Below, in pieces: positions 7,506-54,239 of a DNA stretch of 64,000 nucleotides. The notes below the pieces were generated by a model. The model worked only from the letters and a program-made list of their open reading frames with translations, was not told where the DNA came from and did no database searches. This DNA comes from Terriglobia bacterium (GTDB lineage Bacteria; Acidobacteriota; Terriglobia; JAJPHL01): contig JAJPHL010000035.1 in NCBI GenBank assembly GCA_021325275.1, forward strand, positions 54,916 through 118,915. The letters run 5' to 3'. Both the position numbers and the translations under genes were made by a program. Each line of letters starts with the position of its first letter. Position 1 is the stretch's first letter.

Positions 7506-7573
7506 GACGGCCTCCAAGGGCAGTATATACCGCCCGGTTTCAGTTACCGATGTCTGTTACGGAGGCGCGACGG

Positions 7574-9336: not shown

Positions 9337-10212
9337 TTATTTTTTCCCGATTCGTTTGGCGAGCGCCTCGCCCATTTCCGCCGGCGACTTCACCACGGTA
9401 ATCCCCGCCGCCGTCATCGCTTTCATCTTGTCTTCCGCCGTGCCCTTGCCGCCCGAAATGATCGCACCCGCGTGCCCCATCCGTCGTCCCGGCGGCGCGG
9501 TTTGTCCGGCGACAAATCCCACCACCGGCTTCTTCATGTGCTTCCCGACGTACTCGGCGGCCTGCTCCTCGCCGTTTCCGCCGATTTCGCCGATCATGAT
9601 CACGGCGTCGGTCTCGGGATCCTCGTTGAACAAGCGCATCGCGTCAATGTGCGTGGTGCCGATGATCGGATCGCCGCCAATGCCGATGCACGTCGATTGT
9701 CCGATGCCCAGCGCGGTCAGTTGACCCACGGCTTCGTACGTGAGCGTCCCGCTGCGCGACACGACGCCGACGCGTCCAGGCAAGTGAATGTGCCCCGGCA
9801 TGATTCCAATTTTGCATTTGCCCGGCGAGATAATGCCCGGACAATTCGGTCCAATGAGCCGCGACGACGTTTGCTTCAACACGGCGTGCGCGCGAACCAT
9901 GTCCATCGTGGGAATGCCTTCCGTGATGCAGACGATCAGGGGGATTCCGGCATCGGCCGCTTCCATGATCGCTTCCGCGGCGAACATCGGCGGAACGAAA
10001 ACCACGGACGCATTCGGCTGCACTTCACGCACCGCGTCGGCGACGGTGTTGAACACCGGCAAGCCTTCGTGTTTCGTGCCGCCTTTCCCGGGCGTCACGC
10101 CGCCGACCACTTTGGTTCCGTACGCGATCGCTTGCTGCGCATGGAACGTTCCTTCCTTGCCCGTGAATCCTTGCACCAGGAGGCGCGTGTTTTCGTTGAC
10201 CTGAATGCTCAT
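9337..10212 (-). CDS. sucD: Succinyl-CoA synthetase alpha subunit
   Basis: [32 protein letters not shown], active-site His loop SRSGTLTYE. Confidence 0.95.
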
Positions 10213-46375: not shown

Positions 46376-46503
46376 GTTTTCTCTGCGCCTCTGCGTCTCT
46401 GCGGTGAAAGAACCGCTCGTGGGTGAAATCCTCGTGGGACACGGGCGTAACGACAGGCCTCAGGGGTTTTTCACCGCAGAGACGCAGAGACGCAGAGAAA
46501 ACC
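46376..46503. repeat. REP-like palindromic element, family B (arms GGTTTTCTCTGCGCCTCTGCGTCTCTGCGGTGAAA / TTTCACCGCAGAGACGCAGAGACGCAGAGAAAACC, ~57-nt loop)
   Basis: 35-nt near-perfect inverted arms. The unit CGCAGAGA x3 echoes the CGCAGATn x3 of family A. The loop carries a CTCGTGGG x2 direct repeat. Lies between GDE and aguB, about 58 nt upstream of the aguB start. Confidence 0.75.
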
Positions 46504-46560
46504 TGTTCGGACTCCGCCCGCGATCTGCACAACGCCAGATTCGCGATAAACTATCGAGCG

Positions 46561-47466
46561 ATGCCGCAATCTCGAAACGTCACGGTTGGCGCGATTCAGA
46601 TGAGCATGTCCCGGGATGTGCGCGAAAACTTGCGCAAAGCCGCAGATCTCGTCGCCGAAGCCGCGAAGCGCGGCGCGCAAATCGTCTGCCTACCGGAACT
46701 TTTCGGATCGCAATACTTTTGCCAGATCGAAGACGGCGCGCACTTCGACCTCGCCGAGCCGCTCTCCGGCCCGACGACCGAAACCATGTCGCGCGTTGCG
46801 AAACAAGCCGGCGTCGTTCTCGTGGTTCCGTTCTTCGAGCGCCGTGCCGCCGGCGTTTATCACAACAGCGCCGTGATTCTGGAACGCGACGGCTCCATCG
46901 CCGGGCATTATCGCAAAATGCACATTCCCGACGATCCGTCGTACTACGAAAAGTTTTATTTCACACCCGGCGATCTCGGTTTTCGGGCCATCGACACTTC
47001 GGTGGGGCGCGTCGGCGTGTTGATTTGCTGGGATCAGTGGTATCCGGAAGGGGCGCGGCTCACGGCGCTGCAAGGCGCGGAGATTTTGTTTTACCCCACG
47101 GCGATCGGGTGCTTGCCGATGGATCGCGGCGAGTACGGCGACGCGCAACGCGACGCCTGGCGCACGATTCAGCGAAGCCATGCCATCGCGAACGGTGTGT
47201 TCGTGGCCGCCGTAAATCGCGTGGGGCATGAGACGCCGAATGCGACGTCGCCCGGCATCGACTTTTGGGGATCGTCGTTCCTCTGCGATCCCATCGGCGC
47301 CGTCCTACAGCACGCCGGCGAGAAAGAGCAAATCCTCATCGCCGAATGCGATTTGAATCGCGTGGAAACGATCCGCCGCGATTGGCCTTTCCTGCGCGAT
47401 CGCCGCATCGACGCGTACGGCGGAATCACCGAGCGTTTCATCGATGCGCCACAGGGAGAGCGATAG
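46561..47466 (+). CDS. aguB: N-carbamoylputrescine amidase (CN-hydrolase family)
   Basis: VTVGAIQMSMS...QIVCLPELF (Glu), RKMHIPD (Lys), LICWDQWYPE (Cys) catalytic triad; about 300 aa. Confidence 0.85.
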   Translation: MPQSRNVTVGAIQMSMSRDVRENLRKAADLVAEAAKRGAQIVCLPELFGSQYFCQIEDGAHFDLAEPLSGPTTETMSRVAKQAGVVLVVPFFERRAAGVYHNSAVILERDGSIAGHYRKMHIPDDPSYYEKFYFTPGDLGFRAIDTSVGRVGVLICWDQWYPEGARLTALQGAEILFYPTAIGCLPMDRGEYGDAQRDAWRTIQRSHAIANGVFVAAVNRVGHETPNATSPGIDFWGSSFLCDPIGAVLQHAGEKEQILIAECDLNRVETIRRDWPFLRDRRIDAYGGITERFIDAPQGER

Positions 47467-48522
47467 TTGACGCCGTTCGAACTGGGATTCCGCTTCCCCG
47501 CCGAATGGACGCCGCACGCCGCCACTTGGATCGGCTGGCCGCACAACGAATCCGATTGGCCCAAACGATTTGAAAAAATCCCGGCCGTGTACGTCGAGAT
47601 CGTGCGGGGACTGGTGCGCGGCGGCGAGAACGTCAACATTCTCGTGAACTCGGCAGCGCACGAACAAGGAGCCGTGACGCTGCTCGCGCTGGGGGGCGTC
47701 GACATCTCAACGGTGAGATTCTTCCGGTGGCCGACAAATCGCGGATGGCTGCGTGACTTTGGGGCGATTTGCGTGCGGAACGGGAAAACGGGGGAAGTCG
47801 CACCGATTCGTTTTCGCTTCAACGCCTGGGCCCGCTACGACGATTACGAGCTCGACGATGCGGCCGGCGCGGAAATCGTGAAGACAATCGGCGGGCGAGT
47901 CTTCACCGCCAATCTCGACGGACGCGATGTTGTCCTCGAAGGCGGCGGCATCGACGCCAACGGTCTCGGCACACTGCTCACGACGGAAGAATGGCTGCTC
48001 GATCCCAAGACGCAAGTGCGCAATCCCGGCTTCACGCGCCGCGATTACGAACAGCTCTTCCACGATTACCTCGGCGCAACCAACGTTCTGTGGCTCGGCA
48101 AAGGCGTCGCCGGGGACGACACGCATGGTCACGTGGACGACATCTGCCGCTTTGTGAACGAGAAAACCGTGGTCCTGGCGATGGAATACGATTCCAGCGA
48201 CGAGAACTACCGGCCGCTGCAAGAAAATCGCGAGCGCGCGCGCGGCTTCCGCACCGAGTCCGGTGAAAAAATTGAAGTGGTGGAACTGCCGCTTCCCTCC
48301 GCGATCACGCAGGACGACGAACGCTTCCCGGCGAGCTACGCGAATTTCTACATCGCGAATTCCGCCGTGCTCGTGCCGGCGTTCGATCATCCCAACGACG
48401 CGAAAGCGCTCGGCATCCTCAGTGAATTATTCACCGGCCGCACGATCATCCCGATCGCCGCGGAAGATTTAGTGCTCGGCAACGGCACACTCCACTGCTT
48501 GAGTCACGAACAGCCGCGTTAA
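47467..48522 (+). CDS. aguA: Agmatine deiminase (agmatine iminohydrolase, PAD-porphyromonas-type family)
   Basis: FRFPAEWTPHAATWIGWPHN, HVDD, C-terminal GNGTLHCLSHEQP (catalytic Cys). Apparent TTG start directly after the aguB stop. Confidence 0.85.
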   Translation: MTPFELGFRFPAEWTPHAATWIGWPHNESDWPKRFEKIPAVYVEIVRGLVRGGENVNILVNSAAHEQGAVTLLALGGVDISTVRFFRWPTNRGWLRDFGAICVRNGKTGEVAPIRFRFNAWARYDDYELDDAAGAEIVKTIGGRVFTANLDGRDVVLEGGGIDANGLGTLLTTEEWLLDPKTQVRNPGFTRRDYEQLFHDYLGATNVLWLGKGVAGDDTHGHVDDICRFVNEKTVVLAMEYDSSDENYRPLQENRERARGFRTESGEKIEVVELPLPSAITQDDERFPASYANFYIANSAVLVPAFDHPNDAKALGILSELFTGRTIIPIAAEDLVLGNGTLHCLSHEQPR

Positions 48523-48629
48523 TCCACTTCATCACGATTATTCATTGGATGTTTCACGGGCGGCGGCGTTAACGTTGCTGCAACGAAAGACATTGAACAG
48601 GGCTCTGGGGTTGTTCGTGGAGGCTGGAA

Positions 48630-49028
48630 ATGAATTCAACTGCCCTGAAAGAAGTCATCGCGATTCTCCGGCCGGAACGTTGGCCGGCGGTGAAGAGCCG
48701 CTTGGACCGCTTGCCCGTGGCGTATTCGCAATGCCGCGTGCTCGGCCGCCGCCGTCATGGATCGCTGCGGTACCTGCCGCGAACCGGCGCCCGCCCCACC
48801 GTGATCAACCATCTTCCGCAGCGCATGATCTGCTGCGAGGTGGAGGAATCACTGCTCGATTGGGTGTTGCAAGCGTTCCAAGCGGATTGCACGGGCCGCG
48901 CCGGTGACGGTTTCGTTTTCGTGTTGCCGGTGGAGGCATCTTACCCGCTGGACGCGGAAAGTTTCGTGACGCTCGGCGCGCCGTCGCCGATTCCGGCCAC
49001 GGGGAACATCGTTCATGCAGCCCGGTAA
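48630..49028 (+). CDS. Divergent P-II (GlnB)-like signal-transduction protein
   Basis: LKEVIAILRPERWPAVKSRLDRL...VLGRRRHGS...DGFVFVLPVE follows the P-II beta-alpha-beta fold pattern. The T-loop is GRRRHGS rather than GRQKG. GGAGG RBS upstream. Overlaps the nirA start by 14 nt. Confidence 0.5.
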   Translation: MNSTALKEVIAILRPERWPAVKSRLDRLPVAYSQCRVLGRRRHGSLRYLPRTGARPTVINHLPQRMICCEVEESLLDWVLQAFQADCTGRAGDGFVFVLPVEASYPLDAESFVTLGAPSPIPATGNIVHAAR

Positions 49029-50640
49029 TAACCCCATCGAGACATATAAGGCGGCACTGGGCGGCCATCCGCTGCGAATTCGGGAGCACGTCCCGCGCAT
49101 CATCGCCGAGACCGCCGGCTTGGCGGCAGATGACTGGGACAAACTTGCGCCCTCCGATAAAGAAATGCTGAAATGGCTGGGCGTCTTCTTCCGCAAGCCG
49201 ACGCCCGGCAAGTTCATGATGCGCATCCGTATGCCCAACGGATTCGCCACCAGCGCGCAACTGGCCGCCATCGCCGATTTGTCCAAAAAGCTGGGCGACA
49301 ATACCGTCGACGTCACCACGCGCCAGCAACTGGAACTGCGCGGTTTCACGCTCCAAGGACTGCCCGAGATTTGGGAACGCCTGCGCGGTCTCGATTTGCG
49401 CTCGCTACAAACCGGGCAAGACAACGTCCGCAATCTGAATGGTTGCGCACTCGCTGGATTGACCCCGCACGAATTGCTGGATGCTTCTTCCATCGTCTTC
49501 GAGTTGGATCGCATCATTGTCGGCAAAGAAGGCAATCCGGAATACGCCAACCTGCCGCGGAAATTCAACGTGGTGGTGACCGGCTGCCGCGAAAACTGCA
49601 CGCACGCCGAAACGCAAGACGTCGCGCTCATTCCAGCCAGCAAGGATGGCCGCCTGGGATTCCATGTGCTGGCCGGCGGGAAAATGGGATCGGGCGGTTT
49701 CACGATCGCCAAGAACCTCGACTGGTTCGTTCCGCCGGAGCGCGCCGTGGAGACGGTTTTGGCGATCGTCCAACTGTTTCGCGACGAGGGTCCGCGCGAC
49801 GCGCGCACAAAAGTCCGTCTGGCGTTTCTCATCGCGGATTGGGGGTTGGAATCGTTCAAGGAGAAAGTGCGGGCGCGGTTGAACTGGGAGCCGGAGCCGC
49901 GCGGCGAGGATGCCCGATCCAAGAGGCACAACGATCATCTCGGAGTGCAGGAGCAGCGCGCGAGCGATCTTTGTTCGGTCGGCTTGGTGATTCCCGTCGG
50001 CCGCACAAGGCCCGCCGGATTGCGCGAACTCGCTCGTCTGGCCGATGAATACGGCAACGGCGAAGTCCGCCTGACCACGGCGCAGAACGCCATCATCGTG
50101 AATGTTCCGCGCGGACGCGTAGAAAGACTCTTGGCGGAACCGCTCTTGAAAGAATGGCCCGCCGCGCCCTCGCGTTTTCAACGAGGCTTAGTAAGTTGCG
50201 TCGGCACCGAATACTGCAATCTGGCGCTGATCGACACCAAGAATCGCTCGATGGAAGTGTCGCGCGCGCTGGACCAAATGCTCGGCGGACAAACCGAAGC
50301 GGGCGACGCCCCAACCATTCATTGGTCGGGATGTCCGGCTGGATGCGGCAACCACGCCGTGGCGGATATCGGCTTGCGCGGCACCAAAGTCAACGTGAAT
50401 GGCGAAAGCAAAGACGCCGTGGCGATCTACGTGGGCGGCCGGAGCGGCCCACAATCGCGCGCCGCCACTCAAATCATGGACCTGGTGCCCTGCGACGAAG
50501 TGTTGCCGGACGTTTTGGCCACCGTGATTCGTCATCTGGACTTGTTCAAAAAAGTGCAGCGCGATCCCGAAGCGAAGTCGCGCGTGCTGATGGTACCGGA
50601 AGAGCAATCTTTTCCCAGCGAAGGGAGTTGTACGGAATGA
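49015..50640 (+). CDS. nirA: Ferredoxin-nitrite reductase / sulfite reductase hemoprotein-family protein (sirohaem + [4Fe-4S])
   Basis: Two NIR_SIR ferredoxin-like halves. Cluster/sirohaem cysteines VSCVGTEYCN and HWSGCPAGCGN. Assigned as nitrite reductase from the FNT channel and P-II context. Confidence 0.75.
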   Translation: MQPGNNPIETYKAALGGHPLRIREHVPRIIAETAGLAADDWDKLAPSDKEMLKWLGVFFRKPTPGKFMMRIRMPNGFATSAQLAAIADLSKKLGDNTVDVTTRQQLELRGFTLQGLPEIWERLRGLDLRSLQTGQDNVRNLNGCALAGLTPHELLDASSIVFELDRIIVGKEGNPEYANLPRKFNVVVTGCRENCTHAETQDVALIPASKDGRLGFHVLAGGKMGSGGFTIAKNLDWFVPPERAVETVLAIVQLFRDEGPRDARTKVRLAFLIADWGLESFKEKVRARLNWEPEPRGEDARSKRHNDHLGVQEQRASDLCSVGLVIPVGRTRPAGLRELARLADEYGNGEVRLTTAQNAIIVNVPRGRVERLLAEPLLKEWPAAPSRFQRGLVSCVGTEYCNLALIDTKNRSMEVSRALDQMLGGQTEAGDAPTIHWSGCPAGCGNHAVADIGLRGTKVNVNGESKDAVAIYVGGRSGPQSRAATQIMDLVPCDEVLPDVLATVIRHLDLFKKVQRDPEAKSRVLMVPEEQSFPSEGSCTE

Positions 50641-50954
50641 AGATGATTCGCGCCATGATCCGGCCGGAGAACGAAGAGTTGGTGACGCAGGCGTTGGATG
50701 AAGCCAACATCGCCGGGTTCACCAAGTGGGACGTCTTGGGACGCGGCAAACAGAAGGGAATTCAAGTCGGCGCCGCGGTCTATCCCGAAATTCCGAAGCT
50801 CAGTCTGCTTCTGGTGGTGGAAGACGAGCAAGTGCCGAAGGTGGTGCAAGCGATTCAAAAGGGCGCGCGCACCGGGCATCCCGGCGATGGACGCATCTTC
50901 GTCAGCGACGTGGATTCCGCTTACACAATTCGAACCGGAAAAACTGAACGATAG
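50637..50954 (+). CDS. Nitrogen regulatory protein P-II family
   Basis: MKMIRAMIRPENEELVTQALDEANIAGFTKWDVLGRGKQKG (T-loop) ...GDGRIFVSDVDSAYTIRTGK; 105 aa. ATGA overlap with nirA. Confidence 0.8.
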   Translation: MKMIRAMIRPENEELVTQALDEANIAGFTKWDVLGRGKQKGIQVGAAVYPEIPKLSLLLVVEDEQVPKVVQAIQKGARTGHPGDGRIFVSDVDSAYTIRTGKTER

Positions 50955-50964
50955 AGAGGACGTT

Positions 50965-51825
50965 ATGGCAGACGATTACGTAAAACCCAATGAACTGATG
51001 GCCGAAGCCTTGGCCGCCGCGGAGCGTAAAGCCGCGTTGCCGGTGCGCGATCTTCTGCTGCGCGGCGCACTGGCCGGCGCTTTTCTCGGCTATGCGACGT
51101 CGCTGGTATTCGTGGTGGTATCGCAGGGCGTCGCGCCGATCGTCGGCGCGATTCTTTTTCCGGTGGGCTTCGTGATTCTTGTGTTGCTGGGCTTGGAACT
51201 CGCCACCGGAAATTTTGCGATCCTCACGCAAGGGTGTTTGTCGGGGCGAGTGCGCGGCTCCGGTTTATTGCGCAATTGGGCGTGGGTCTATCTCGGCAAT
51301 CTGCTGGGCAGCATGTTCTACGCCGCGCTCTTCTATGCGGCGATCACGAGTTTCGGCGCCACCGATGGCGGTCCGCTGGGCGAATTGGTGCGTCAAGCCG
51401 CGCAGAAGAAGACGCTGGCCTATGCCGCGCTCGGCACACGCGGTTGGGCCACGGCATTCGTCAAAGCAATACTCTGCAACTGGATGGTGACACTCGGCAC
51501 GATGCTGGCCTTTGTGTCGCGCTCCACGCTGGGCAAGATCGCCGCGATGTGGCTGCCCATTCTGACGTTCTTCGCGCACGGCTATGAACACTCCATCGTC
51601 AACATGTTCGTGATCCCCGCGGGGATGCTGCTGAAAGCTCCGATCTCGCCGGCCACTTGGTGGCTCTGGAATCAGATTCCCGTGACGTTGGGAAACATCC
51701 TGGGCGGCGCAGTCTTAACGGCATGGGCTTTGCACCTGACCTATCAACAACCCGCGCCGTCGCGATTGGAAAAAACGGAGCTTGCCGCCATCCCGGTGGC
51801 CATCCCACTCTCATCGGAGGAATAA
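50965..51825 (+). CDS. Formate/nitrite transporter (FNT) family channel
   Basis: Six TM segments. FNT signature regions LAGAFLGYATSLV, GLELATGNF, NWMVTLGTMLA, HSIVNMF. Confidence 0.85.
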   Translation: MADDYVKPNELMAEALAAAERKAALPVRDLLLRGALAGAFLGYATSLVFVVVSQGVAPIVGAILFPVGFVILVLLGLELATGNFAILTQGCLSGRVRGSGLLRNWAWVYLGNLLGSMFYAALFYAAITSFGATDGGPLGELVRQAAQKKTLAYAALGTRGWATAFVKAILCNWMVTLGTMLAFVSRSTLGKIAAMWLPILTFFAHGYEHSIVNMFVIPAGMLLKAPISPATWWLWNQIPVTLGNILGGAVLTAWALHLTYQQPAPSRLEKTELAAIPVAIPLSSEE

Positions 51826-51827
51826 TT

Positions 51828-53219
51828 ATGTCCCTACGGCCCGTTCTCTCGCTGGTGGTGTGCGCGACGTGCTTGATTGTCGCGGTTGGAGCGTCCGCCC
51901 AGGATTCCGCCGTCGTTCTGGCGCGTATCCTGGCCGAAAAAGGAATCATCACCAAGAGCGACTTGGCGCGGGTCGAGTCGGCCGGCGGCGACAAGTCGCA
52001 AGTCTTGACGCAAGTCGCAGCTTCCGCTCTCACGCAGAAGGAGAAGCCCCCGGCGGCGGTCGCTGCTTCCTCGGCGGCATCCTCCCCGGCTGAGAAAACC
52101 GCAAACGGGCCGATCACTTTTTACGGGTCAATCCTCTGGAACTCTTACCTGAACACTTCGCTCACCAACAACGCCGATGTTCCGCTGTTTGCTGGAAAGC
52201 AAGGGTCGGACGCGGCCGGCAATGACAAGAATTTCGGCATGACAGTCCGGCAATCGCGCCTGGGCTTGCGCTTTAACGGACCTGAAGTGGCCGGCGCGAA
52301 GTCGAGCGCCGTTGTGGAAACCGATTTCTTCGGCGGTCAAGCGTCGCTGGCCAACGGCATCGCCATGGATCTTGTTCGGCTGCGTCTGGCGTATGGAAGA
52401 TTGGATTGGACCAGCGCATCGCTCGTCGCCGGACAAGATTGGTCGGTGTTCGCGCCGCTCAACCCGACGTCATTGGCAAGTTTTGCGATTCCCGCGATGG
52501 CGGCCTCGGGCAATCCCTGGAGCAGGACGCCGCAAGTGCGCGGCGAATGGCGGGACAAATCGCTTCTGTGGCAGATGGCCGCCACCGATCCCAACATCGG
52601 CGACTATCCGGCCGCTTTCGCCACTTCGCGCACGCCGGCGATCGGCGAACGTGGACGCTTGCCTGCATTCGATTCCCGGTTGGCTTGGACGCACCGCATG
52701 AATGGACAACAAGCTTCACTCGGCGTGAGCTCGCACTATAGCCGCGGCAAAAACGCCGGCGCGATCGGCACGCGCAATGTGGAACAAGGTGTCGATTCCT
52801 GGGGAGTGGCGCTCGATTACATTGTTCCCTTGCATCGGCGATTGATATTGTCGGGCGAGATCTTCGAGGGCCGCGCCCTGGGCGCCTTCAGCGTCGGCCT
52901 GGGACAAGGCGTATTGGCCGTGGGAACCCCCGGCGCGCACGGCGTGGGAGCGGCCGGCGGGTGGAGTCAGGCGCAAATCCAACTGTCGCCGCGCTGGCAA
53001 TGGAACACGTCGTATGGTTTGGAGTCGGACGAAGCCGCCAATCTGACGGCGGGCGCCCGGAACCGCAACTCAACGCTGATGACCAACTTGATGTACAAGC
53101 TCTCGCCGCAATTCACCGTAGCGGGAGAATACCGGCGGTTGTTCACCGATTTCTACAATCAGCAACCGTTCAACGAACGCGGCGATCATTTCAACCTGGC
53201 GGTCGGGTACATTTTCTAA
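51828..53219 (+). CDS. Outer-membrane beta-barrel porin (putative anion-selective), signal peptide
   Basis: Signal peptide MSLRPVLSLVVCATCLIVAVGASAQ after a GGAGG RBS 3 nt past the FNT stop. Alternating amphipathic beta-strands and an aromatic C-terminal residue (GYIF). Confidence 0.5.
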   Translation: MSLRPVLSLVVCATCLIVAVGASAQDSAVVLARILAEKGIITKSDLARVESAGGDKSQVLTQVAASALTQKEKPPAAVAASSAASSPAEKTANGPITFYGSILWNSYLNTSLTNNADVPLFAGKQGSDAAGNDKNFGMTVRQSRLGLRFNGPEVAGAKSSAVVETDFFGGQASLANGIAMDLVRLRLAYGRLDWTSASLVAGQDWSVFAPLNPTSLASFAIPAMAASGNPWSRTPQVRGEWRDKSLLWQMAATDPNIGDYPAAFATSRTPAIGERGRLPAFDSRLAWTHRMNGQQASLGVSSHYSRGKNAGAIGTRNVEQGVDSWGVALDYIVPLHRRLILSGEIFEGRALGAFSVGLGQGVLAVGTPGAHGVGAAGGWSQAQIQLSPRWQWNTSYGLESDEAANLTAGARNRNSTLMTNLMYKLSPQFTVAGEYRRLFTDFYNQQPFNERGDHFNLAVGYIF

Positions 53220-53237
53220 TTATGGAGTGCGGCGGAA

Positions 53238-54239
53238 TTAGTCCACGTGCGCGTCGCGCAGGAACGCCGCTGCTTCTTCCGGTGGCGTGGGATTAATGTA
53301 GAATCCCGTTCCCCATTCGAATTCCGCGACTTTCGTGAGCTTGGGCATCAACTCGATGTGCCAGTGATAATAATCGTTGGTCGACTCCATCACCGGCGAC
53401 GTGTGGATCACTAGGTTGTACGCCGGGGATTCCAGCGCCTGATTCAACTTGCCGAGCACGTTTTTCAGCGCGCGCGCCAATCCTTCGTAGTGACCCGAAG
53501 GCGAGTTCTCCACCGCCGACTCGTGCTGCTTCGGTAGAATACACGTCTCGAACGGGAAACGCGGCGCCCACGGCGCAACGGTGAGAAAATCCGTGGAGTC
53601 TTCGATCACGCGCACCTGCGATTGCAATTCCTGGCGGATGATGTCGCAAAAAATGCAACGTTCTTTTTGACCGTAAAACGCCTTCGCCCCGTCCATCTCC
53701 TCGCGCACATAGCTCGGCACAATCGGCAGCGCGATCAACTGGCTGTGCGGATGTTCCAACGACGCGCCGGCCGGTTCGCCGTGATTCTTGAAAATTAAAA
53801 TGTAGCGGAAACGTTTGTCTTTTTTCAGATCGAGAATGCGATCGCGAAACGCCCACAACACGTCTTCCACGCCTTTCAGGGGCAGCGTGGCCAGCGATTG
53901 CATGTGGTCCGGCGACTCGATGATCACTTCATGCGCGCCGATGCCGTTCATCTTGTCGAACATGCCTTCGCCGCGCCGCGCCAATTCGCCTTCGATGCCA
54001 AGCGCGGGAAATTTATTCGGCACTACGCGCACGGTCCAGCCGGGCGTGTTCGGCGCGCCGCCGTTCGGGCGATAGGCCATGATCTCGCGCGGCGTGCGGT
54101 CTTCTTGTCCCGGACAAAATGGGCAGAAGCCGCCTTGCGGCACGACTTTTTCGCGTAAGAAATCGCTGGGACGGCGCGCGCGATCGGTGGAAATAATCAC
54201 CCAGCGCCCCGTCACCGGGTCCTTGCGTAACTCGGGCAT
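53238..54239 (-). CDS. galT: Galactose-1-phosphate uridylyltransferase (HIT superfamily)
   Basis: Zinc knuckle CPFCPG; VVPNKFPAL; active-site HPHSQLIAL. Confidence 0.85.
   Translation of the reverse strand: MPELRKDPVTGRWVIISTDRARRPSDFLREKVVPQGGFCPFCPGQEDRTPREIMAYRPNGGAPNTPGWTVRVVPNKFPALGIEGELARRGEGMFDKMNGIGAHEVIIESPDHMQSLATLPLKGVEDVLWAFRDRILDLKKDKRFRYILIFKNHGEPAGASLEHPHSQLIALPIVPSYVREEMDGAKAFYGQKERCIFCDIIRQELQSQVRVIEDSTDFLTVAPWAPRFPFETCILPKQHESAVENSPSGHYEGLARALKNVLGKLNQALESPAYNLVIHTSPVMESTNDYYHWHIELMPKLTKVAEFEWGTGFYINPTPPEEAAAFLRDAHVD

Follow-up and report, generated by a model that had tools for sequence, protein, structure and literature searches.

Two NifI-like P-II genes flank an assimilatory nitrite reductase gene in an acidobacterial operon

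Background

The closest described system is the NifI1/NifI2 pair of P-II proteins, by which methanogens, and anaerobic bacteria of some kinds, shut down their nitrogenase (PMC12439982; bioRxiv 10.64898/2025.12.07.692841). According to the published work, the pair inhibits nitrogenase by competing with the electron donor, neither subunit works alone, and the NifI2 T-loop provides most of the contacts to the target; in the M. acetivorans NifDK-NifI1,2 supercomplex (PDB 9P1X) each trimer contains two NifI1 and one NifI2. The locus considered here, from a soil bacterium, lies in a 64-kb window (the whole stretch of DNA analysed) and likewise carries two paralogous P-II genes, but a sirohaem nitrite reductase takes the place of NifDK as the neighbouring enzyme, and the window is devoid of nif genes.

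Other P-II systems offer different comparisons. GlnK-AmtB is the classic case of a P-II gene paired with a transporter gene, while enzyme-targeting P-II proteins include activators, as in PII-NAGK. In cyanobacteria, uptake through NrtABCD is subject to PII-dependent inhibition, and GlnB is not known to bind NirA. Cyanobacterial NirA is, however, bound directly by NirP1, a small protein unrelated to P-II, which sets a precedent for protein-level control of a ferredoxin-nitrite reductase by direct binding (PMC10907346). The present locus would share with these cyanobacterial controls the physiological aim of adjusting, at the level of proteins, both the uptake and the reduction of nitrite to C/N status. 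It differs in that cyanobacterial GlnB, a canonical homotrimer, has its gene elsewhere in the genome. We found no description of control of NirA by a P-II pair in the searchable literature.

Results and discussion

Organization of the locus

All five genes of the preliminary description are present at the coordinates stated, tightly packed on the + strand and preceded by an intergenic leader:

48523..48629, + strand: presumed operon leader or promoter, a 107-nt intergenic stretch between an agmatine-deiminase-like gene (ending at 48522) and PII-a
48630..49028, + strand: PII-a, long NifI2-like P-II protein, 132 aa (Pfam P-II, AF2 fold, family profile)
49015..50640, + strand: NirA, assimilatory sirohaem/[4Fe-4S] ferredoxin-type nitrite reductase, 541 aa (Pfam, NCBIfam and PDB matches)
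50637..50954, + strand: PII-b, short NifI1-like P-II protein, 105 aa (Pfam P-II 90 bits; NifI1 as best PDB match)
50965..51825, + strand: FNT-family anion channel, presumed nitrite importer, 286 aa (Pfam Form_Nir_trans 228 bits, in line with the first assignment)
51828..53219, + strand: outer-membrane porin, 463 aa (signal peptide, N-terminal helical region, predicted beta-barrel)

Translational coupling was originally proposed for all five genes; of the four junctions, two are true overlaps, PII-a/NirA (14 nt) and NirA/PII-b (4 nt, ATGA), and the other two are short gaps: 10 nt between PII-b and the FNT gene, with AGAGAGGA upstream of the latter, and 2 nt between the FNT and porin genes, where the last codons of the FNT gene contain the GGAGGA of the porin. 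The leader has GGAGG 7-11 nt ahead of the PII-a ATG, a stretch (ATCCACTTCATCACGATTATTCATTGGATG) resembling the leader of the related locus L005, and a predicted GC-rich hairpin (z = -2.6); it matched nothing in Rfam, and neither a promoter nor a terminator consensus rose above background.

The porin begins MSLRPVLSLVVCATCLIVAVGASAQ, ends ...AVGYIF and has no Pfam hit. It has 468 homologous proteins at E <= 1e-5; among the 120 matches listed, three homologues are named, each from Bryobacterales or Bryobacteraceae, and Porin_4 is present in three. Its AF2 model (pLDDT 64) shows many long strands, and the best Foldseek matches are OmpU, OmpF, OmpC and PhoE (target TM ~0.55). The porin also follows the FNT gene in L005 and L133; this position is taken by an Alginate_exp porin in L088, and L132 has no porin there.

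Two P-II proteins related to NifI1 and NifI2

The T-loop motifs first noticed in the two proteins, GRRRHGS and GRGKQKG, are confirmed at residues 39-45 of PII-a and 35-41 of PII-b. The second copy had been called a canonical P-II; it is instead of NifI1 type, with a T-loop 4 residues shorter, and not a canonical GlnB/GlnK. Its best PDB match is NifI1 (9p1x_H, 102.9 bits; next 74.4), to which it is roughly 60% identical across 103 residues as counted by hand from the alignment. PII-b and nif-linked NifI1 both lack 4 residues of the T-loop and both have AYTIRTG as C-loop, and the ligand-site residues of PII-b are the same, intact set as in NifI1. Its dN/dS is 0.02-0.04.

That the first copy is a P-II protein at all is supported by a narrowly passed Pfam cutoff (26 bits against 25), by the profile of its family of 49 homologues, which scores 109 bits against a solved P-II, and by an AlphaFold (AF2) model with a beta-alpha-beta x2 fold and a long T-loop, for which the best 50 PDB matches in Foldseek are all PII or PII-like (PstA). 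The solved structure best matched by the family profile is NifI2 (9p1x_G, 108.8 bits; next 83.9). This NifI2 affinity is visible at the family-profile level only, as the single sequence matches A. fulgidus GlnB (E 1e-7) better than NifI2 (E 5e-4). PII-a and nif-linked NifI2 nevertheless share (L/M)KEVIAIIR, (I/L)PKRM and VNxTGxxGDGxxFVLP. Neighbour-joining (NJ) bootstrap values were 62% for PII-a with nif-linked NifI2, 66% for the NifI1-like clade including PII-b and 69% for the union of the NifI1-like and NifI2-like groups, supports that are modest on an alignment of only ~104 columns. Judged by sequence comparison, PII-b is related to NifI1 and the PII-a family to NifI2, so that what had been offered as an analogy is better described as homology.

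Relative to E. coli GlnB, PII-a has six ligand-site residues replaced (G37R, Q39H, K58Q, K90F, R101P and R103D), while it retains the family T-loop LRYLPRTGA, the P-II core and the B-loop TGxxGDG. The loss is restricted to the acidobacterial subclade of the window; more distant family members retain the residues. The earlier suggestion of a degenerate, non-sensing first copy thus fits the residues for this subclade only, in which PII-a has been stripped of most ATP/2-oxoglutarate-binding residues with its T-loop kept.

The parallel with NifI extends to the combination of a short (105 aa) and a long paralogue, to their embedding in the operon of the reductase that they would control, and to the long subunit's T-loop as the target-specific element. 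The differences are the gene order (long-enzyme-short here, short-long between nifH and nifD for NifI), a PII-a T-loop of about canonical length rather than extended as in NifI2, and the lost ligand-site residues, which NifI2 keeps.

Conservation of the arrangement

Metagenome loci were fished with the PII-a T-loop alone, so that the synteny sample is not circular. NirA lay immediately downstream of PII-a in all 32 real loci so obtained, and a short PII followed NirA in each of the 15 that reached far enough past it; this conservation, a check proposed at the outset, extends to L004, L005, L006, L086, L088, L091, L132 and L133, all with the order PII-a, NirA, short PII. Since this order recurs in dozens of independent contigs, the arrangement is not due to chance. 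The T-loop of the long PII varies with context, being GLRYLPRxGA with NirA and of other sequences with MFS transporters, NirD fusions, NirB-only clusters and nif, which matches the published role of the NifI2 T-loop in target contacts. Long and short PIIs always co-occur, even where the long one is part of an enzyme fusion, in keeping with an obligate partnership. The NifI1/NifI2 affinities, the conserved gene order, the enzyme fusions and the context-dependent T-loop of the long PII are new here.

In most relatives the module is preceded by GAF-ANTAR genes, suggestive of NasT/NasR-type antitermination. The 64-kb window contains no ANTAR gene, and in L132 and L133, which are close relatives, none adjoins the module. 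ANTAR proteins work on transcription, whereas the P-II pair would work on proteins.

Proposed mode of action

We suggest that a NifI-type P-II pair has most likely been retargeted to an assimilatory nitrite reductase, which may be switched much as the NifI pair switches nitrogenase. We give about an even chance to the full proposal that the five genes make up a nitrite-assimilation operon complete in itself, with heteromeric NifI-type P-II control of NirA. In its favour are the NifI1 and NifI2 affinities and shared motifs, the synteny, Rosetta-stone fusions of the long PII to a NirB-like reductase or to NirD (detailed below), the T-loop that varies with context, the constant company of long and short PII, the ligand-site residues, the purifying selection on PII-a and the NirP1 precedent. 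Nitrite would be imported through the porin in the outer membrane and the FNT channel in the inner membrane, and converted to ammonium by the ferredoxin-type sirohaem NirA; PII-a, of the NifI2 lineage, and PII-b, of the NifI1 lineage, would act post-translationally on the pathway. From the NifI1,2 precedent we infer one heteromeric trimer, probably of two PII-b and one PII-a. The strongly conserved T-loop of PII-a may dock this complex on NirA and hinder access of the electron donor, with PII-a serving, in the subclade of the window, as a non-sensing targeting subunit. The intact sites of PII-b would take ADP, or MgATP plus 2-oxoglutarate. Following the logic expected from NifI, the ADP form would bind the target and 2-oxoglutarate with MgATP would release it, flipping the T-loops and freeing NirA under nitrogen shortage (high 2-oxoglutarate) with sufficient energy. 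It may be that the complex also throttles the FNT channel, avoiding a build-up of nitrite while NirA is off, since in other clusters the gene right after a PII of the PII-b subtype encodes a nitrate or nitrite transporter.

Inhibition of NirA without inhibition of uptake would build up toxic nitrite, a consideration that counts against the NirA-inhibition reading. Other points against the proposal are the NifI2 affinity of PII-a at profile level only, the modest bootstrap supports, the fast evolution of PII-a relative to its neighbours, and an alignment of NirA to plant nitrite reductase that revealed no lineage-specific insertion as a candidate docking site. The transporter-adjacent subtype of PII-b, moreover, fits an action on FNT at least as well as control of NirA.

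Alternative readings of the P-II pair

The position of PII-b raises the question of whether the two proteins act together. Window PII-b does not belong to the subtype that trails NirA in most clusters: it groups with MFS-linked short PIIs (63%), apart from the after-NirA subtype (94%). Its own subtype sits directly upstream of a transporter gene, which is an MFS gene in L004, L091, L093 and L111 and an FNT gene in the window, L005, L088, L132 and L133; of the after-NirA subtype, none of at least 20 short PIIs adjoins a transporter. Neither the after-NirA short subtype nor the MFS-type long subtype occurs in the window-type cluster, and its pair is in this sense mixed. A P-II gene immediately upstream of a channel gene is also the arrangement of GlnK-AmtB and SbtB-SbtA. 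All this would suit two independent homotrimers, PII-a acting alone on NirA and PII-b alone on the FNT channel (on MFS nitrate transporters elsewhere), as a GlnK/AmtB- or SbtB/SbtA-like plug that shuts nitrite import at low 2-oxoglutarate. PII-b is, however, of NifI1 type, not a GlnK; a long P-II partner is present in every cluster examined, and in MFS clusters every PII-b-type short PII is directly preceded by a long partner of its own; and neither NifI subunit is active alone in the studied system. FNT channels are pentamers and MFS transporters monomers, so that a symmetric trimer-on-trimer plug of the GlnK-AmtB kind is impossible on either; the channel here is presumably a pentamer too, rather than a trimer. 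PII-a, with its own ligand sites lost, would be unable to sense as a homotrimer. We regard independent homotrimers as rather unlikely.

The fusions found in other lineages bear on the direction of control. A reductase resembling the N-terminus of NirB (FAD/NAD(P)H) forms a single ORF with PII-a directly before NirA-Rieske in six loci (L006, L119, L120, L125, L127, L128) and in P0300, and a NirD(Rieske)-long PII fusion follows NirB, with a 105-aa PII after it. The fused FAD reductase must supply electrons to NirA-Rieske, and it would be odd to tether an inhibitor permanently to the very donor that it shuts out; a module for docking or gating is the more natural reading. The P-II pair could on this account be a positive adaptor, possible given that P-II activators such as PII-NAGK exist, in which the PII-a T-loop recruits or positions the electron donor on NirA (ferredoxin here, in other lineages a Rieske module or the fused FAD reductase) only if 2-oxoglutarate and ATP indicate a demand for nitrogen. 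We consider this quite unlikely, as NifI1,2, the nearest homologues, inhibit their target in competition with its electron donor, and the NirA of the window has no fused donor, like the free-standing plant and cyanobacterial nitrite reductases that work without an adaptor.

The degeneracy of PII-a could also mean that, in the window subclade, it is a decaying remnant without regulatory role, leaving control to PII-b alone or no P-II control. Besides the six replaced residues, no Pfam P-II hit was recorded for PII-a of L132 and L133; it is 71% identical to its L132 counterpart, where the neighbouring genes reach 88-95%, and by dN/dS it evolves 3-8 times faster than they do. This value, 0.18-0.29, is nonetheless well below 1 and points to purifying but relaxed selection, and thus not to a pseudogene; moreover, the ORF is intact and its overlap onto nirA conserved in every relative examined, and the T-loop (LRYLPRxGA), core and B-loop are kept. 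We therefore think decay very improbable.

Nitrite rather than sulfur

NirA has two copies each of Pfam NIR_SIR and NIR_SIR_ferr, a fold common to nitrite and sulfite reductases. It scores 491 bits against the NCBIfam ferredoxin-nitrite reductase model, under the equivalog cutoff of 594, and 113-176 against sulfite reductase models. In the PDB it matches plant Fd-nitrite reductases at 345 bits, M. tuberculosis NirA (1zj8, which we take to act as a sulfite reductase, SirA) at 189 and true sulfite reductases at ~80. Its motifs are Cys395-x5-Cys401, Cys440-x3-Cys444 and PRKFN at 181-185, in which the Lys-x-Asn is presumably of nitrite reductase type, CysI carrying Lys-x-Lys. Nitrate reductase, nitrate-type MFS transporter, MoCo, NirB/NirD and ANTAR regulator genes surround the cluster in relatives. 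Models, structures and this context agree on nitrite rather than sulfite. The first interpretation could have fallen on this point or on the P-II identity of PII-a, and it is supported on both.

The FNT channel is nearest in the PDB to Chlamydomonas LCIA (100 bits; presumably the protein also named NAR1.2, of the NAR1 family), ahead of FocA (86), 3tdo FNT (80; in our understanding the C. difficile hydrosulfide channel) and NirC (62), and has the motifs ELATGN (Thr) and YEHS (central His). Among NCBIfam models FocA (141 bits) exceeds NirC (81), both under their cutoffs, and nitrite is the presumed substrate from context only. A sulfur-handling cluster of sulfite reductase and hydrosulfide or formate channel, for which the shared fold and the FocA score might speak, is hardly credible given the wide margin of the nitrite reductase matches, the PRKFN motif, the nitrate genes of relatives and the LCIA affinity.

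Conclusions

If heteromeric NifI-type control of NirA is correct, nitrite reduction, and perhaps nitrite uptake, would be coupled in these bacteria to 2-oxoglutarate and to ATP/ADP.

Organization of the cluster

The ORF listing and its translation bear out the preliminary description of five co-directional genes, which are arranged as follows.

48630-49028, + strand: PII-a, the long P-II protein, 132 aa; first gene of the operon
49015-50640, + strand: NirA, 541 aa; 14-nt overlap with PII-a
50637-50954, + strand: PII-b, the short P-II protein, 105 aa; 4-nt overlap with NirA (ATGA)
50965-51825, + strand: FNT channel, 286 aa; 10-nt gap after PII-b
51828-53219, + strand: outer-membrane protein (porin), 463 aa; 2-nt gap after FNT

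A purine-rich Shine-Dalgarno-like stretch lies 5' of each of the five starts, and G+C content is even over the cluster region (0.59-0.63). Between the cluster and the gene pair upstream of it lies an intergenic leader of 107 nt, and a convergent GalT-like gene marks the downstream limit of the cluster. A gene search found no ANTAR regulator, MFS nitrate transporter, NasA, MoeA or TauE elsewhere in the 64-kb window, and we therefore regard the cluster as a nitrite-only module here. No nif genes were found in the cluster or in the gene calls about 10 kb to either side.

The upstream pair (46423-48522) consists of two abutting genes, one for a CN-hydrolase resembling N-carbamoylputrescine amidase and one for an agmatine-deiminase-like (PAD_porph) protein, a combination that makes up an ammonia-releasing polyamine route. 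In the closely related locus L132 the cluster is adjoined instead by spermine synthase and AdoMet decarboxylase genes; this link to polyamines may be a coincidence. An Rfam scan of 48300-53500 gave zero matches, and a scan of the cluster region for consensus promoters and terminators gave none above shuffled background. The leader at 48523-48570 shares with those of the related loci L005 (about 7520-7560) and L088 (about 9810-9850) an A/T-rich stretch followed by TTCATTGGA(T/C), and in L005 and L088 a TATCTT lies 18 nt 3' of it. The sigma-70 consensus scan missed this common stretch, a possible promoter or operator.

Relationship of the two P-II proteins to NifI1 and NifI2

The first small ORF had been called P-II-like at the outset, and this assignment holds. 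Its match to Pfam PF00543 is marginal (26 bits, cutoff 25), a family profile made by aligning its 49 homologues (118-201 aa) scores 84-109 bits against solved P-II proteins, and its AF2 model, with strands at residues 6-13, 32-37, 64-72 and 95-101, helices at 15-26 and 73-84 and a disordered segment at 38-63, is a twofold beta-alpha-beta ferredoxin-like fold with a protruding disordered T-loop. The best 50 Foldseek matches of this model in the PDB are all PII or PII-like (PstA) proteins. On the strength of these scores and matches, the reading of PII-a as something other than a P-II was rejected.

As a single sequence PII-a best matches archaeal GlnB/GlnK, with A. fulgidus GlnB ahead of NifI2; the family profile best matches NifI2 (9p1x_G), at 108.8 bits versus 83.9 for the next protein. 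PII-b is a clear P-II (90 bits to PF00543). Among solved structures it is closest to 9P1X chain H (105 aa; 102.9 bits versus 74.4 for the next match), with which it aligns end to end at roughly 60% identity, counted by hand on the printed alignment. Entry 9P1X shows the supercomplex of M. acetivorans nitrogenase with NifI1,2, where each P-II trimer contains two NifI1 and one NifI2; because the chain counts are 12 and 6, chain H is NifI1 and chain G is NifI2.

Genuine nif-linked pairs (L055 and L074, with NifH upstream, and L013, in a nifEN/nifX cluster) served as controls in the alignment. With nif-linked NifI2, PII-a has in common the motifs (L/M)KEVIAIIR, (I/L)PKRM and VNxTGxxGDGxxFVLP, while PII-b shares with nif-linked NifI1 a 4-residue T-loop deletion and the C-loop AYTIRTG. 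In a neighbour-joining tree (200 bootstraps), where support is moderate because the alignment is short, NifI1-like and NifI2-like proteins stand together apart from GlnB/GlnK (69%), the NifI1-like clade receives 66%, the NifI2-like clade, joining PII-a to nif-linked NifI2, 62%, and the PII-a family 79%. Neither protein matched a NifI-specific NCBIfam model, and the assignment therefore rests on PDB matches, motifs and tree. We take the annotation labels 'PII 1' and 'PII 2' to stand for the nifI1 and nifI2 KEGG orthologues. Several PII-b relatives in the JGI source are labelled 'PII 1'; of five labelled PII-a relatives there, two are 'PII 2' and three plain 'nitrogen regulatory protein PII'. 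PII-b is NifI1-like but not a NifI1, because no nif genes surround it; the window cluster does not resemble the nif clusters of control loci L013, L055 and L074.

The two proteins differ in their ligand sites. We take the P-II residues contacting ATP/ADP and 2-oxoglutarate to be G37, R38, Q39, K58, G87-D88-G89, K/R90, R101 and R103 (E. coli GlnB numbering). PII-b has the ligand-site residues of NifI1 and keeps the whole GlnB set except for R101T, a change also found in NifI1. PII-a departs from it by six replacements (G37R, Q39H, K58Q, K90F, R101P and R103D), all of which recur in its close relatives (proteins P0002-P0008 and loci L132 and L133); distant members of the family retain G37, K58, K90, R101 and R103.

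Two further features of the PII-a family are visible in its alignment, A1. Nearly all C-termini (window 49012-49028) read H-A-(S/A)-(R/G)-(Q/E), and within their CAT-GCN codons lies the ATG of nirA, which overlaps there; this conserved ending is probably due to the overlapped start and not to PII function. In many relatives (A1 columns about 40-70: P0011, P0015-P0020, P0023 and others; L004 10001-10140) the N-terminus is extended by about 60 aa, and the added part contains a conserved motif, ..E.G..RS.APG.L..W..P; this extension is missing from the window PII-a.

Nitrite reductase, FNT channel and porin

NirA has the duplicated NIR_SIR_ferr and NIR_SIR architecture (Pfam) and the C-x5-C ... 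C-x3-C ligands of the cluster and sirohaem at Cys395, 401, 440 and 444. The choice between a nitrite and a sulfite reductase, left undecided at first reading, falls to the former. Among PDB proteins NirA scores 345 bits against plant ferredoxin-nitrite reductases, 189 against 1zj8 (M. tuberculosis NirA, which presumably functions as a sulfite reductase, SirA) and about 80 against true sulfite reductases. Among NCBIfam models it scores 491 bits with the ferredoxin-nitrite reductase PRK09566, below the 594-bit equivalog cutoff and so not as a strict equivalog, versus 113-176 with those for sulfite reductases. It also carries the motif PRKFN; Lys-x-Asn is the nitrite reductase form of this site, and Lys-x-Lys is found in CysI. 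Homology and the nitrate-assimilation neighbours of related clusters thus suggest that NirA would reduce nitrite to ammonium with ferredoxin as donor.

The channel matches Form_Nir_trans in Pfam (228 bits) and has the conserved Thr (ELATGN at 78) and central His (YEHS at 207). Its closest PDB relative is Chlamydomonas LCIA (100 bits), presumably the protein also named NAR1.2, followed by FocA (86), 3tdo (80), an FNT that we take to be the C. difficile hydrosulfide channel, and NirC (62). None of the NCBIfam subfamily models was matched over its cutoff, and operon context points to nitrite as the likely substrate.

The porin starts with a signal peptide and ends in Phe. It had zero Pfam matches and 468 homologues at E <= 1e-5; among the 120 listed, three are named, all from Bryobacterales/Bryobacteraceae, and three have Porin_4. 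Its AlphaFold model, of medium confidence (pLDDT 64), contains many long strands, and the best PDB folds for it are the general porins OmpU, OmpF and OmpC (TM about 0.4-0.6, for a model of pLDDT only 64). In the porin and its homologues (window 51900-52040, residues about 25-70) the barrel is preceded by an N-terminal helical region, unusual among general porins, with the repeated motif LARILAEKGIITKSDLARVESAG.

Conservation of the gene order

The order PII-a, NirA, short PII was found by contig look-ups from PII-a homologues in L004, L005, L086, L088 and L091, by tblastn in L006, and in the close relatives L132 and L133. A scan of genome contigs with the full PII-a alignment was unspecific, because the pattern GDG[KRF][IV]FVLP is generic: 79 of 80 loci proved to be ordinary GlnB/GlnK or nif PIIs, with L006 the sole true relative; from the off-target loci, L013, L055 and L074 (nif clusters) and L011 (NirB variant) were used as controls. 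To avoid circularity, the query alignment for metagenome contigs was then confined to the T-loop region of PII-a. Of 33 loci recovered in this way 32 were real, all 32 had NirA directly downstream, and a short PII followed in every one of the 15 that reach past NirA, so that the bracketing of nirA by P-II genes extends well beyond the window. A GAF-ANTAR regulator lies upstream in about 20 of these loci. In many relatives NirA has a C-terminal Rieske domain.

The module of L004, L091 and L093 belongs to a large nitrate-assimilation cluster with MoCo biosynthesis genes and TauE, which also has a NasA-type nitrate reductase and a second long/short NifI-like PII pair directly 5' of an MFS nitrate-type transporter gene; one nitrate-assimilation cluster can therefore hold four NifI-like PII genes. 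This second pair (about 117 and 105 aa, overlapping) lies at L004 17158-17822, L091 7651-8318, L093 7594-8318 and L111 7977-8746. A variant order occurs in a Candidatus Troglogloeales MAG (L011 7248-13504), where a long PII, a short PII, an MFS gene, a 1058-aa NirB and another short PII follow one another, so that the association of NifI-like PIIs extends to NirB-type nitrite reductase.

The four-gene core PII-a/NirA/PII-b/FNT recurs among unrelated flanking genes in L005, L132 and L133, and in a more divergent version in L088. After FNT there is a window-type porin in L005 and L133, an Alginate_exp porin in L088 and none in L132; in L091 and L093 an Alginate_exp porin stands between the MFS transporter and NasA. 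Pairwise BLASTP found zero similarity between the window porin and the Alginate_exp porins of L006, L088 and L091, and on sequence grounds these are different families in an analogous position. Such an unrelated barrel takes the place of the window porin at L088 13797-14999, L006 4937-6607 and L127 4373-5503, and the pairing of a transporter with a dedicated outer-membrane channel seems to have arisen more than once.

By motifs and tree, the short PIIs of nitrate clusters fall into two subtypes. The first follows NirA in large clusters and has the motifs SLTKMDVLGRGQQRGIQV and GDGKIFISPV; the second, with TKWDVLGRGxQKGIQV and GHPGDGRIFVS, lies directly 5' of a transporter gene, which is an MFS in L004, L091, L093 and L111 and an FNT in the window, L005, L088, L132 and L133. 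Bootstrap support is 94% for the after-NirA subtype versus everything else and 63% for the transporter-adjacent clade. PII-b belongs with the latter, so that in the window cluster the long PII is of the NirA type and the short PII of the transporter type.

Fusions and T-loops of the long P-II

In six loci (L006, L119, L120, L125, L127 and L128) and in protein P0300, PII-a forms the C-terminus of a 420-aa Pyr_redox_2 and Rubredoxin_C module, the NAD(P)H/FAD part of NirB-type reductases, as a single unbroken ORF immediately 5' of NirA(-Rieske). At L095/L096 8001-9034 a long PII sits on the C-terminus of a Rieske NirD after full-length NirB, and a 105-aa short PII overlaps the NirD-PII end by 4 nt, followed by MoaA, NasA and MFS. 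A long PII is also fused to a molybdopterin oxidoreductase domain (P0340; L130 2772-4231), and there the next genes are a 105-aa short PII, overlapping by 4 nt, and an MFS transporter. By these fusions the long PII is physically linked to nitrite reductase or to the part through which electrons enter, and they show that the short PII accompanies the long one even when the latter is part of an enzyme.

The T-loop of the long PII is nearly invariant within one genomic context and different between contexts.

T-loop of the long PII by genomic context
With NirA: GLRYLPRxGA....RYLPK
Reductase fusions: GLQFL(P/A)RRGA
Before MFS: GLRG.PGGQG
NirD fusion: GLKYWNAKKRADRLD
L093 (NirB, no NirA): GLRREPGPG
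nif NifI2: long, variable loops

The PII-a loop is of about canonical length, and those of nif-linked NifI2 are 10-15 residues longer. In published NifI1,2 structures most contacts with NifDK are made by the NifI2 T-loop, and MgATP plus 2-oxoglutarate displaces the loops; the context-specific loops of the long PIIs agree with such a role.

Possible mode of action and alternatives

It is very probable, in our view, that PII-a and PII-b both belong to the NifI lineage of PIIs and are functionally linked to assimilatory nitrite reduction. The preliminary description had likened the two P-II-like proteins bracketing NirA to NifI1/NifI2, and this interpretation is supported, even strengthened, by the present results, its mechanistic part being what we infer. 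The most likely mechanism, by analogy with nitrogenase and with an even chance of being correct, would be a NifI-type heteromeric P-II complex on nitrite reductase. PII-a and PII-b may co-assemble as a 2:1 trimer, as suggested by their homology to both NifI subunits and their obligate co-occurrence, the long PII being always accompanied by a short one in the loci examined. PII-a would direct the complex to nitrite reductase, PII-b would make it responsive to ADP or to MgATP plus 2-oxoglutarate, and under nitrogen sufficiency the complex would restrict the flow of electrons into NirA and possibly also the entry of nitrite.

It is rather unlikely that PII-a and PII-b regulate independently of each other, the target of PII-b being the FNT channel; the transporter-adjacent subtype of PII-b would fit separate working, and equally a hybrid trimer serving both NirA and the channel. 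That the pair is a positive, donor-recruiting adaptor is suggested by the fusions of long PIIs to reductase modules, and seems improbable overall. Decay of PII-a is less probable still. Its dN/dS (0.18-0.29) exceeds that of NirA (0.06-0.15), FNT (0.08-0.16) and PII-b (0.02-0.04), all rough values since dS is saturated, and PII-a evolves faster than its neighbour genes, yet clearly under purifying selection and with its overlap with nirA always preserved. A sulfite reductase with a hydrosulfide channel was rejected because nitrite reductase models and structures outscore sulfite ones, and a role of the cluster in sulfur metabolism is most improbable.

The heteromeric complex on nitrite reductase would work like NifI1/NifI2, from the same branch of which the window pair probably descends. 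NifI proper differs in its nif-operon location and NifDK target, neither of which is true of the window pair, and NifI2 in its extended T-loop and ligand residues, both absent from PII-a. According to a structural paper of 2025, no heteromeric P-II complex other than NifI1,2 is known, and no other P-II variant acts directly on nitrogenase. Nitrospira nirA clusters have been reported with GlnB and AmtB, an arrangement different from that of the window, and cyanobacterial NirP1, which binds and regulates NirA (PMC10907346), is a precedent for a protein-level regulator of this enzyme. The openly searchable literature yielded no description of NifI-like PIIs with nitrite reductase.

More tentatively, NifI-type heteromeric P-II complexes may not be limited to nitrogenase, and a second widespread branch could serve assimilatory nitrate/nitrite reduction. 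One long/short pair would gate NirA or NirBD via electron-donor docking and a second pair the nitrate transporter or nitrate reductase, giving an 'ammonium switch-off' in uncultured soil and groundwater bacteria; the acidobacterial form would be one hybrid pair, with a ligand-blind NifI2-like targeting subunit and a NifI1-like subunit doing all the sensing.

If the heteromer on nitrite reductase is real, assimilatory nitrite reductase would be a new direct P-II target, and the NifI mechanism, in which a P-II trimer responding to 2-oxoglutarate and ATP cuts a reductase off from its electron supply, would be a general device that nitrogen-assimilation enzymes use repeatedly. In that case the window subclade would also supply a natural heterotrimer of the 'sensor plus pseudo-sensor' type, in which asymmetric ligand sites could be studied, and the FAD-reductase-PII and NirD-PII fusions make the hypothesis directly testable with recombinant proteins. 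The finding also bears on the interpretation of nitrogen cycling in Acidobacteria and groundwater metagenomes, where these genes have generic P-II labels.
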